A stretch of DNA of 50,984 nucleotides from a phage: sequence record NC_100129.1; one strand, 5' to 3'. Made by a program: the position numbers and the translations under genes. Of the stretch, positions 6,845-9,679 are shown piece after piece. The notes beneath the pieces are model-generated. The model was not told where the DNA came from, ran no database searches, and saw only the letters and a list, made by a program, of their open reading frames with translations. Numbering within the stretch: position 1 is the first letter of the stretch; each line of letters opens with the position of its first letter.

Positions 6845-7063
6845 ATGAGCAACAAATTTTTTACCGTGGCGCTGATTATCAAACATGAAAACGGCACTAC
6901 CACTGAGATCCCTACAAAATTCCCAGCCGACTCCTGGACTAACGAGCAAGCTGTCGGATATGTTGAGGAAATGGCTAAACGCGTAATGGCTGGTCATTAT
7001 GATATTGAATTTCAGGAAAACCAGAAGCTAACAAATCATTCACACGAATGGACTGATGCTTAA
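6845..7063 (+). CDS. hypothetical protein (72 aa)
   Basis: Internal ATG with GAGGAAAA RBS after motif; followed by bidirectional terminator. Confidence 0.5.
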   Translation: MSNKFFTVALIIKHENGTTTEIPTKFPADSWTNEQAVGYVEEMAKRVMAGHYDIEFQENQKLTNHSHEWTDA

Positions 7064-7067
7064 AAAT

Positions 7068-7092
7068 AAAGGAGGCTTTAAGCCTCCTTTTT
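7068..7092. terminator. bidirectional rho-independent terminator
   Basis: Hairpin GGAGGCTTTAAGCCTCC flanked by A-run and T-run between convergent genes. Confidence 0.75.
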
Positions 7093-7464
7093 CTTTGTCC
7101 AGAAGTAGATAGCAAGCATTACGGCGAATGTGGCAAAACATACGATTATCGGGTCGTACCATCTGCCGTTATCACCCTGCACAACCTGGATTTTTTCCGC
7201 ATTGATGGTATTGGCCTGAATGGTTGATGCCTTAACCGTCTTCTTGCTTGATGTATCCACCTTTTCGACCTTCGATTCTTTAAAGGTGTTTTCCTGCTTG
7301 CTGCTGGAGTCTTTTTTTGCGGTAATACCAACGGCCTGCTTCACGTTCTCCGCGCCAGCCTGGGCGCTAATATCTGGCTTACTTCCGGTCAGTATGTCAA
7401 CTGGACTTATAGCAGAACAGCCGGACAATAAAACCGCCAGTGCAATAGCTGTGATTCGTTTCAT
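7078..7464 (-). CDS. unimolecular spanin (lipoprotein with C-terminal TM anchor)
   Basis: N-terminal signal plus lipobox LLSGC and C-terminal TM IIVCFATFAVMLAIYFW in one 128-aa protein; directly downstream of endolysin; this architecture is the T1 gp11-type u-spanin. Confidence 0.75.
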   Translation of the reverse strand: MKRITAIALAVLLSGCSAISPVDILTGSKPDISAQAGAENVKQAVGITAKKDSSSKQENTFKESKVEKVDTSSKKTVKASTIQANTINAEKIQVVQGDNGRWYDPIIVCFATFAVMLAIYFWTKKKEA

Positions 7465-7952
7465 TACAGATCCCTCATGCAGTATTTAAACTCAACCGCG
7501 CGACGGTTGCGTAAACCTTTAGAGCGTTCTTTCTTTCCGGTTTTAGGATTCGTGAATTTATCCCACCGCCATAACTGCTGGCACGCTTCCGGAAATCTGC
7601 CCTGATTAATCAGTTTAAGCATTGTCGAATTGCGGAATGCACCCACACCAGCGTTAAAAGTGAAACTATACATCGCCGCTCTCATCGTGGCTGGGATTTC
7701 AACCTTCACGCGCTTGTCTACTTCATCCTTCGCCACCTTGATATGTTTTGCCAGTAGCGCATCGCATTCGCGCTTTGTGTAGGTCTTGCCGATAATCACA
7801 TCTTTTCCGGTGATTCCGGCGCATACCGTCCAGACTCCGGCAATATCTTTATATGGCGTGTATCTGATCCCTTCGATTTCCTCAAGAAGTGGAGAAGTAA
7901 GAGCAAGCGCAGCGCCGATGGCGACGGCGACGACGCTATTTCTTGCGCTCAT
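7464..7952 (-). CDS. endolysin, lysozyme-like with N-terminal signal-anchor (SAR-type, inferred)
   Basis: 162 aa; N-terminal weakly hydrophobic Ala/Gly-rich segment; [26 protein letters not shown] resembles the catalytic Glu region of phage lysozymes; lies between holin and spanin. Confidence 0.7.
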
Positions 7953-8188
7953 TATTTACCCCTAATTTCAATTGCTTTTTTAAAGTCACCACTATCAAGC
8001 GCCTTCTGGAAGGCTTTACTATCACGCCACCGCAGATAAGCGCCCCACACGCCGAAAATAGCCATCAATACGAAGCTGGCAATTGCAATTGCAGTTTGTC
8101 CGGTTACTGCTCCAGTGATTGATGCGCCACCCGTGCCTGACGTTGCAGCGTTCAAAAAATCTTTCATTTTTAGATCCTCTTTATTCAA
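7952..8188 (-). CDS. holin (single TM, pinholin-like)
   Basis: 78 aa, one TM ([20 protein letters not shown]), charged C-terminus, first gene of lysis cassette. Confidence 0.6.
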
Positions 8189-8225
8189 ATGTCAATAGTG
8201 ATGATTGCATTTTAAACATTGCGCT

Positions 8226-8268
8226 GAAAAAATAAATAAAAAAAGGAGGCTTGTAAATTAAGCCTCCT
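8226..8268 (-). terminator. rho-independent terminator (minus strand)
   Basis: Hairpin AGGAGGCTT..AAGCCTCCT followed on minus strand by a long T-run; between phosphoesterase and holin genes. Confidence 0.65.
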
Positions 8269-8290
8269 TATAAGTTAATGTTTTATATGG

Positions 8291-8461
8291 TTATTCTACT
8301 GGTGAAAAAGTCAGGTAATAGCCGTGTAATGGTGCGATTATTGCGCTGCCTTGCCCGTCGCGGATCTCATACATGCCGCCAGGAATTGCTACCGCCGTGT
8401 AAATCAGGCCGACGGTATAAGGCAATTGCTTAGATGTGTTTCTGGTGCAACGTACTTTCAT
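8291..8461 (-). CDS. small hypothetical protein (56 aa)
   Basis: Manually read ORF; ATG directly abuts stop of upstream gene (TAAATG). Confidence 0.3.
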   Translation of the reverse strand: MKVRCTRNTSKQLPYTVGLIYTAVAIPGGMYEIRDGQGSAIIAPLHGYYLTFSPVE

Positions 8462-9580
8462 TTATTTCTCTGCCATCTCAGGATAAAACATAAAGCGTCC
8501 GATTTCGCCGTGTTCTTTGTCGTAAATGATAACCGCAGCACGGCGACGGGAACGCCAACCGCCTCGCGCGGCGTATGCGTCTTTAGCTGCCATCGTGCTA
8601 TGTACTTCAACAATGCCGAGCGATGTTTCTGTTACAGTCTGATGATGAAAATGCCCTACGTGCGCATACATCGTTTTTGAGTTGCCGAAGTCCTCCCGCC
8701 AGTCTGCCGCGCACATCATTAGCAATGTTTCCGGCTTGCGTACGGTGTGACCGTGATGATATGCAAGGAAGGTTTTTCCGTACTGCGTATGGTGAACCAC
8801 TCGCGGCGATACATCAACGTAAACGCGAGGCTCTTTTTCATATGCCGCCGCCATAGCTGCACGTAACCAGATCATGCCGCTTTGGTCATGGTTTCCCTCA
8901 ATTATCTGGATCTCTACTTCTTTGTGTTTTTTGAGCATCAACTCAATGGCACGACGGACGGCGCGGATTGCCACGTAAACCAATTTTGCGTATCGGCTAT
9001 CTTGATCCAGGACGTGACCGCTTGCAGGCGTTACTGCTTCCAGGCCGTCACTATGAAGCATGTCACCCCCAATCAGTAGCACTGCTTTCTCGCTGAACGG
9101 TGCGCAGGCCACAGCATAATCGAAAAAGTCATTCATTACTTTCTCAGCCGTGGACGTATCCCAATTCTCGCCGCATTCGTGTTTGTGCGCCATAGCTCCC
9201 AGGTGCATATCAAAAACTGGGTAAAGGGCAAGGCTTTCTCTGTATTCGCTAGTTTCTTCTGGTGTCGGATCTACGCGAGGCAATTCTTCGGTAAAAGCGT
9301 CCATAGCTGCGCGCATCAACGCTTCCAGTTGCTCTTTGTCCTTACTGGTCTTTGTCCATTTGACGATCACGTTTCCGTCTTTGTCGGTCATGACCGATTC
9401 ACCGTGAACACCAAACCCAGGCGTTCCGATGGTGGATATTTTACCCTGCTTTGCCAGTCGTGCCGCGCGGCGCTCGACACTACGAACGTTAAGGCCGTAT
9501 TCCTCAGCAATCTGCCGATAGCTCTTACCCTTTAATCGCTCATGCGTGAATTGCTCGTCCGTTATCTTGCTTTGACTCAT
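8462..9580 (-). CDS. calcineurin-like metallophosphoesterase with N-terminal HTH domain
   Basis: N-terminal HTH (SYRQIAEEYGLNVRSVERR); phosphoesterase motifs DMH, GDMLHSDG, EGNHDQ, GHFHH. Confidence 0.65.
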   Translation of the reverse strand: MSQSKITDEQFTHERLKGKSYRQIAEEYGLNVRSVERRAARLAKQGKISTIGTPGFGVHGESVMTDKDGNVIVKWTKTSKDKEQLEALMRAAMDAFTEELPRVDPTPEETSEYRESLALYPVFDMHLGAMAHKHECGENWDTSTAEKVMNDFFDYAVACAPFSEKAVLLIGGDMLHSDGLEAVTPASGHVLDQDSRYAKLVYVAIRAVRRAIELMLKKHKEVEIQIIEGNHDQSGMIWLRAAMAAAYEKEPRVYVDVSPRVVHHTQYGKTFLAYHHGHTVRKPETLLMMCAADWREDFGNSKTMYAHVGHFHHQTVTETSLGIVEVHSTMAAKDAYAARGGWRSRRRAAVIIYDKEHGEIGRFMFYPEMAEK

Positions 9581-9679
9581 GATTTTTCTCCTATTGTCAC
9601 ATTACGATGCTATACATGATAGCGGTCGCAATGATAACGGGTAACGGTAGAACAAACAAGCGCCACATGATAACAATCC

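Follow-up and report, generated by a model that had tools for sequence, protein, structure and literature searches.

The locus at positions 8291-9580 of NC_100129.1, a phage DNA of 50,984 nucleotides (nt; this whole analysed stretch is called the window), raises the question of what is done by a protein that joins a helix-turn-helix (HTH) domain to a metallophosphoesterase (MPE), and whether it is linked to the small protein encoded directly behind it. Both genes lie on the minus strand, which the sequence-only reading of this DNA had left unstated; the features it described are all present. A 372-amino-acid (aa) HTH-MPE protein, placed by the list of open reading frames (ORFs), its PHROG 704 match and its T1 orthologue gp16, is encoded at 8462..9580, and a 56-aa protein of Pfam family DUF7244, a stand-alone SH3-like β-barrel, at 8291..8461. 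Both ORFs are genuine genes and not chance occurrences, given the PHROG 704 match, relatives of the larger protein in 2,063 of 50,697 phage records and the DUF7244 match of the smaller one. With moderate confidence, we propose that the larger protein is an HTH-tethered, Rad50-independent and metal-dependent DNA nuclease of phage DNA metabolism.

The source phage belongs to the Drexlerviridae (T1-like phages). At the nucleotide level, the region shares 97.7% identity with Escherichia phage MatMar (Drexlerviridae, Tempevirinae, Warwickvirus), where the large gene is CDS0043 and the two genes are annotated as 'DNA repair exonuclease' and 'hypothetical protein' respectively; T1 gp16 is annotated like the former. 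The 372-aa protein is 99.2% identical to a protein of phage BabyEgg and matches PHROG 704 ('DNA repair exonuclease') over its full length (E 4.4e-148; residues 4-370 aligned to positions 2-389 of the 390 in the profile). An exonuclease-holin-endolysin-spanin module has been described in 508 of 522 Drexlerviridae (PMC13164509). The gene is thus already known: it is an ordinary, annotated and widespread core gene of T1-like coliphages, near-universal in phages that plague laboratories and serve in phage therapy.

Clustered at 50% identity, its family counts 4,633 representatives (E ≤ 1e-3), mostly of about 370-420 aa, and the phage groups with relatives include Drexlerviridae, Guernseyvirinae, Dhillonvirus, Jedunavirus, Casjensviridae, N4-like roseophages and Vibrio phages. 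A genome scan gave a further 65 loci in diverse, mainly proteobacterial, species, and integrase and other phage genes nearby suggest that most of these are prophages. With about 4% of sequenced phage records, this is one of the larger phage families that have a predicted function only. The combination of HTH and phosphoesterase had been regarded as an unusual pairing; it is instead the normal architecture of this very large family, as a region of 105-218 residues precedes the catalytic core in all 101 aligned relatives, and the GenBank record of phage KP36 gp63 already mentions an HTH.

The metallophosphoesterase core spans residues of about 114-365 (8486..9241, minus strand). All five superfamily motifs, DxH, GDxx(D/H), GNH(D/E), H and GxH, are found in it as D124xH126, G172D173xxH176, G229N230H231D232, H276 and G309H310xH312, and the calcineurin-like stretches quoted earlier (FD124-M-H126, G172-D-M-L-H-S-D-G179, G229-N-H-D232 and G309-H-F-H-H313) are there without exception. 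Across the 101 diverged relatives (cluster representatives, 32-55% identical), D124, H126, D173, N230, H231, H276, G309 and H312 are invariant, and G172, G229, D232 and H310 are each retained by at least 90% of them. The motif residues D124, H126, D173, N230, H231, H276 and H312 are likewise invariant in 25 closer homologues. The Pfam matches of the 372-aa protein all fall under the curated cut-offs; Metallophos (PF00149) scores 13.2 bits (E 0.12) against a cut-off of 21.5 bits, and reaches E < 0.01 in 23 of the 101 relatives. For this reason the domain identity rests on the relatives, the invariant motifs and the structure model. The AlphaFold2 model (mean pLDDT 76.8, core mostly > 90) shows the two-sheet β-sandwich fold of MPE enzymes.

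We also observed a family-specific segment, VTPxSGHxLDxDxRxxK, that follows motif II at residues 179-199 (nt about 8984-9046). T184 is invariant in it and D192, D194 and R196 are at least 90% conserved. The segment has no assignable counterpart in known MPE nucleases and may form a substrate-binding loop.

Which class of MPE enzyme the protein belongs to is indicated by its structural neighbours. The best matches of the model are nuclease-type enzymes (Mre11, SbcD and the PolD subunit DP1) and not Ser/Thr phosphatases. A profile of the enzyme domain alone matches nine PDB sequences, all of them nucleases (Mre11/SbcD and the Pseudomonas 'Nuclease MPE'), and aligns DxHxG and GDLLH(S) with Mre11; the Mre11-type signature, i.e. 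a GDLFH-like motif II and a GNHD motif III, is present in the 372-aa protein. Like λ NinI, a Ser/Thr protein phosphatase, the protein is a phage-encoded MPE, and some records name the family after NinI. Kinship to a characterised phage Ser/Thr phosphatase, the case named beforehand as speaking against a DNA-bound enzyme, was not borne out: the protein has neither the PPP signature (GDxHG/GDxVDRG/GNHE) nor the PPP fold of the NinI type. Among the 60 structural matches listed, the sole protein-phosphatase chains (PP5 and a calcineurin fusion) reach 8.2-8.6. Small phosphodiesterases follow the nucleases closely (MJ0936, 13.6; LpxH, 12.4), and the structural neighbours among viral proteins are all uncharacterised. 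It is conceivable, if rather unlikely, that the protein is a small-molecule or protein phosphoesterase, such as a cyclic (oligo)nucleotide phosphodiesterase or a phosphatase, which would act in host takeover or destroy a defence signal while the HTH provides regulation or localisation. A relationship to defence systems was not seen, as PADLOC gave no match.

The N-terminus, at residues of about 8-44 (9449..9559, minus strand), is modelled as a three-helix HTH of the sigma-70 region 4/LuxR-GerE type, for which DNA binding is predicted. The helices comprise residues 8-16, 21-28 and 32-44 (pLDDT about 80-86). Pfam Sigma70_r4_2 (PF08281) matches with 22.9 bits (E 6.6e-5; cut-off 25.7), as do several other HTH families, and the close homologues P0023, P0026, P0031 and P0078 have precomputed PF08281 matches. 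HTH_1, HTH_8, Sigma70_r4_2 and GerE were matched among the 101 diverged relatives, down to E 1.5e-9, and the family profile aligns with the HTHs of GerE (1fse, E 0.02) and RhlR. The three modelled helices and the matches of the relatives support the HTH that had been called from the letters. The domain search proposed as a check of this architecture gave a divided answer: the protein itself stays under the Pfam cut-offs for both domains, and matches to each occur among its relatives. Between HTH and core lies a linker (residues of about 55-100; 9281..9418, minus strand; pLDDT about 42-63) with a predicted β-hairpin at 60-77 and a predicted helix at 82-97; its residues G69 and W75 are each retained by at least 90% of the diverged relatives.

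The HTH could itself be the output of the protein. If so, the protein would be a transcription regulator, e.g. of the neighbouring lysis or late genes, with the phosphoesterase as sensor or modulator. The resemblance of the HTH to sigma-70 region 4, LuxR and LysR-type regulators fits this, as does the automatic annotation of one Escherichia coli homologue as an Rrf2 regulator. The gene also lies directly upstream of the lysis cassette, which is the place of late regulators such as Q in lambdoid phages. In contrast, no catalytic residue varies within the family, a sign that catalysis is under selection. Moreover, a search for an operator near the gene found a terminator-like hairpin only and no repeated operator-like dyad, so that an operator at this place was rejected, and contexts without adjacent lysis genes are common. 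We therefore regard a regulator as improbable.

The alternative of a DP1-like proofreading or accessory subunit that works with a DNA polymerase takes its cue from the structural match to DP1 (5ihe) and is very improbable, since the annotations of T1, MatMar and Bas11 list no DNA polymerase gene. In addition, the 372-aa protein differs from DP1 and from the B-subunits of eukaryotic polymerases in having no OB domain, no polymerase or DP2 partner and an unrelated N-terminus.

As to known stand-alone enzymes, the protein resembles the Pseudomonas 'Nuclease MPE' PdeM (6nvo), a ligase-associated Mn2+-dependent DNA nuclease that needs no Rad50. The likeness consists of weak matches (profile and NCBIfam) around the GNHD motif; it is at motif level only (E about 0.2), and PdeM has about 215 aa, no HTH and another genomic setting. 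The phage T5 protein A1, an MPE-type protein of host-DNA degradation and second-step transfer, has ESNHDxxxSxWL where the family has EGNHDxxxxxWL. We rejected homology to A1, which differs in size and genome position: hhalign gave a probability of 22% over 20 columns, and the proteins fall into PHROG 1745 and 704 respectively.

The genomic position of the gene points to DNA metabolism. In the window it closes a minus-strand operon that includes an SNF2-type (ResIII/Helicase_C) helicase, a VRR-NUC gene, a Dam methylase gene and small ORFs; the ResIII/Helicase_C and VRR-NUC assignments come from scans of the window and that of Dam from the MatMar/T1 annotation. Its place as the last large gene of this operon suggests that it serves phage replication and recombination or the breakdown of host DNA. 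According to the model we favour, the HTH would hold the enzyme on DNA, where a Mn2+/Mg2+ centre would cut phosphodiester bonds at DNA ends, hairpins or branches, and it would do so without a Rad50/SbcC ATPase partner. The earlier idea of a DNA-bound phosphatase/nuclease or regulator is partly supported, in so far as an HTH accompanies a catalytically intact, binuclear MPE of the Mre11/SbcD/PolD-DP1 structural type; the pairing on which it was built is not unusual. If the proposal holds, a self-targeting Mre11-like nuclease without Rad50 would be a compact new type of enzyme for processing DNA ends or branches.

The theme common to the neighbourhoods of relatives is DNA or nucleotide metabolism, and the gene often stands where the early region meets the lysis or packaging genes. 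In lambdoid mEp010 and E. coli prophages (66-68% identical), it belongs to the early replication region, where it is flanked by an HTH_36 protein and DnaB and lies upstream of NinB. It ends the primase-helicase operon ahead of the terminase in Jedunavirus FZ14, and its neighbours are thymidylate synthase/dCMP deaminase in DSS3phi2 and ribonucleotide reductase in RDJL Phi 2. An MPE-helicase module common to T1-like and lambdoid phages was rejected, because the window helicase DUF3987 is unrelated to the DnaB on the prophage side.

Other neighbourhoods would suit a late nuclease of the lysis or packaging stage, which would supply the terminase with trimmed or debranched concatemers, or remove unpackaged and host DNA shortly before lysis. 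The Dhillonvirus Envy has the order holin-endolysin-x-MPE-TerS-TerL, the MPE gene of RcMaeve directly follows an Rz1-like gene (order spanin-MPE), and in the above 508 Drexlerviridae the gene adjoins the lysis cassette. Of about 37 prophage loci in diverse Proteobacteria, about 12 had an endolysin or holin family within the three upstream ORFs and about 6 the large terminase within the three downstream ORFs, counts that rest on crude gene calls. However, the window gene ends a DNA-metabolism operon and is parted from the lysis genes by a hairpin, the lambdoid prophage homologues sit in the early replication region, and the HTH has no similarity to the small terminase of the phage itself, so that a kinship of the two was rejected. 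Together, these observations leave the late nuclease an unlikely alternative.

Several points weigh against a DNA nuclease of phage DNA metabolism. The protein shares the structural type of the Mre11/SbcD nucleases (Thermotoga maritima Mre11, 3qg5; Staphylococcus aureus SbcD, 7dog; phage T4 gp47 and T5 D13), but it bears its own N-terminal HTH, lacks their capping domain and ends a few residues past the last core strand (358-365). Nor is a Rad50/SbcC gene annotated in MatMar, T1 or Bas11; in the window, the two ORFs of > 500 aa that were scanned with Pfam are helicases, and the other long ones were assigned by their position in annotated relatives (tail fibre, tail tip, tape measure and terminase). 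Owing to the missing capping domain and Rad50/SbcC gene, the protein is a predicted Mre11-class-like enzyme outside the Mre11 family in the strict sense. The similarity to nucleases is marginal at the sequence level, with E 0.06-1 for Mre11/SbcD and 0.06-1.1 for the PDB profile matches as a whole, and the model is of low confidence at the HTH-to-core linker and at the conserved loop 179-194. Neighbourhoods vary widely, with no conserved partner gene among the prophage loci compared. T1-like phages already encode RecE-like, VRR-NUC and HNH nucleases according to the T1 annotation, and our literature search found no paper that tests or characterises the function of any family member. Finally, the many relatives in prophages argue against host-DNA destruction as a role of the whole family.

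This last point bears on a more specific proposal. Degradation of the host chromosome in T1-type infection has been known since 1981. The responsible gene had not been identified according to a 2024 paper on phage TLS (PMC11447400), and the 372-aa protein is a reasonable candidate for this unassigned activity of T1. That the HTH-phosphoesterase is indeed the host-chromosome-degrading enzyme, with the coupled DUF7244 protein as its cofactor and not as a lysis accessory, is doubtful, since many relatives reside in temperate phages and T1 has other nucleases.

We now turn to the small gene and its junction with the large one. On the minus strand, the TAA of the 372-aa ORF abuts the ATG of the 56-aa ORF without any spacer, which confirms the TAAATG noted earlier and places it at 8459..8464 (the plus strand reads catTTA). 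The large gene has the Shine-Dalgarno sequence AGGAG at 9588..9592 (minus strand), 9-13 nt upstream of its start, and no GGAG, GAGG or AGGA occurs upstream of the ATG of the 56-aa ORF. Since the small gene lacks a Shine-Dalgarno sequence, its translation plausibly depends on ribosomes that finish the large gene, and termination-reinitiation would fit. Such junctions are routine in the window; holin and endolysin share boundary bases at 7952, and endolysin and spanin at 7464.

A survey of the exonuclease-DUF7244 junction in related phages gave a mixed picture. MatMar has the same TAAATG with zero gap as the window, and the Klebsiella phage K50_evo31 and Bas11 have a 1-nt overlap (TAATG). The two genes are 84 nt apart in 12210I, and are separated by an annotated terminator plus an HNH gene in T1 and by a terminator-like hairpin plus an HNH gene in JMPW2. 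KP36 has no SH3 gene at this place, where polynucleotide kinase and dNMP kinase genes are found instead. Because the genes are joined in Tempevirinae (the window, MatMar and Bas11) and K50_evo31 and separated or missing in the others, the abutting junction is lineage-specific. The translational coupling that had been claimed for the pair is compatible with the joined stop and start codons here, and would be lineage-specific.

The 56-aa protein matches DUF7244 (SH3 clan) with 97 bits against a cut-off of 27, and its model is a confident five-strand SH3-like barrel (pLDDT 94). In 2026, DUF7244 was reported in 188 of 522 Drexlerviridae, always between exonuclease and holin, and a lysis-accessory role was proposed by analogy with SH3b cell-wall-binding domains (PMC13164509). 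The 56-aa ORF occupies this same position. Protein-binding SH3, KOW and cell-wall SH3b domains resemble its fold about equally well, and reading of the sequence by eye revealed no signal peptide or transmembrane segment; consequently, the proposed lysis role is not specifically supported. All DUF7244 matches are stand-alone proteins of about 55-60 aa with no fusion protein among them, and nearly every named record is of an enterobacterial T1-like phage. We rejected the idea that DUF7244 accompanies the enzyme beyond the Drexlerviridae as a conserved partner, because none of the small ORFs that flank the MPE gene in Envy, RcMaeve, S142 and Vibrio phage 91E30-1 is related to it; they match Rz1-like LysC, Imm or DUF7768, or nothing.

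The gene order also sets the locus apart from the published lysis module, in that the DUF7244 gene is joined stop-to-start to the exonuclease gene and parted from the holin gene by a hairpin. This terminator-like hairpin (minus strand) has the stem AAGGAGGCTT/AAGCCTCCTT, a 7-nt loop and a T-run, extends over 8235..8269 (hairpin 8243-8269) and precedes the lysis cassette; a TTGACA promoter-like site follows it in the window, near 8195. A hairpin with T-run, unrelated in sequence, stands directly after the SH3 gene and before holin in five lineages (the window, K50_evo31, 12210I, JMPW2 and Bas11). For this reason, the DUF7244 gene seems to close the transcription unit of the exonuclease gene rather than to open that of the lysis genes. 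Its protein would then be made by ribosomes that have just finished the large gene, from a shared transcription unit ending at the hairpin ahead of the holin promoter; a link between this protein and the large one is putative. The gene order casts doubt on the recent proposal that the SH3-like gene belongs to the lysis module.

We noticed that hairpins at 7068-7090 and 8243-8269 have the identical stem AGGAGGC...GCCTCCT and flank the holin-endolysin-spanin cassette. This stem has two matches in the window versus 0 expected in shuffles. Both hairpins are terminator-like, and the one at 7068-7090 scores as terminator on both strands. They are probably the 'dyad motif' that the sequence-only reading had put forward as a binding target; a hairpin followed by a T-run makes a terminator-like element and no evident operator.

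Another small SH3-like β-barrel protein of these phages, Bas11 Gp54, was shown to trigger the defence toxin CapRelSJ46 (PMC11578894). The window encodes a Gp54 homologue at 2076-2270 on the plus strand (53% identical, tblastn E 3e-20). Identity of Gp54 with the DUF7244 gene was rejected, as Bas11 has both genes at different loci.

Free-standing HNH endonuclease genes lie directly downstream of the MPE gene in T1/JMPW2, Jerseyvirus S142, lambdoid mEp010 and Vibrio phage 91E30-1 (L007 42028-42510; L078 3707-4189; L003 5128-5598; L008 8070-8660; L006 5010-5519). Their presence next to the MPE gene in four unrelated lineages suggests that this gene is a recurrent landing site of homing endonucleases. 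In Guernseyvirinae (S142, L003 3759-5131; Bas73, L084 2977-4858), the MPE gene forms part of a small opposite-strand island within the tail-gene cluster, and in S142 its neighbour is an Imm_superinfect gene; accessory or competition genes are typically found at such places. The homologue of mEp010 and E. coli prophages (gene at 7001-8131, L008-L010) is 66-68% identical to the protein of T1-like phages, which are usually regarded as virulent; this degree of identity implies that virulent T1-like phages and temperate lambdoid ones exchanged the gene fairly recently.

Finally, 16 GenBank records of a 'Campylobacter phage' (MG0656xx) show ~80% nucleotide identity to this T1-like coliphage region, and a protein of 'Streptococcus phage MBBL140' (P0047) is 80% identical to the 372-aa protein of the window. 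These records look like T1-like contaminants or phages with mis-assigned hosts.

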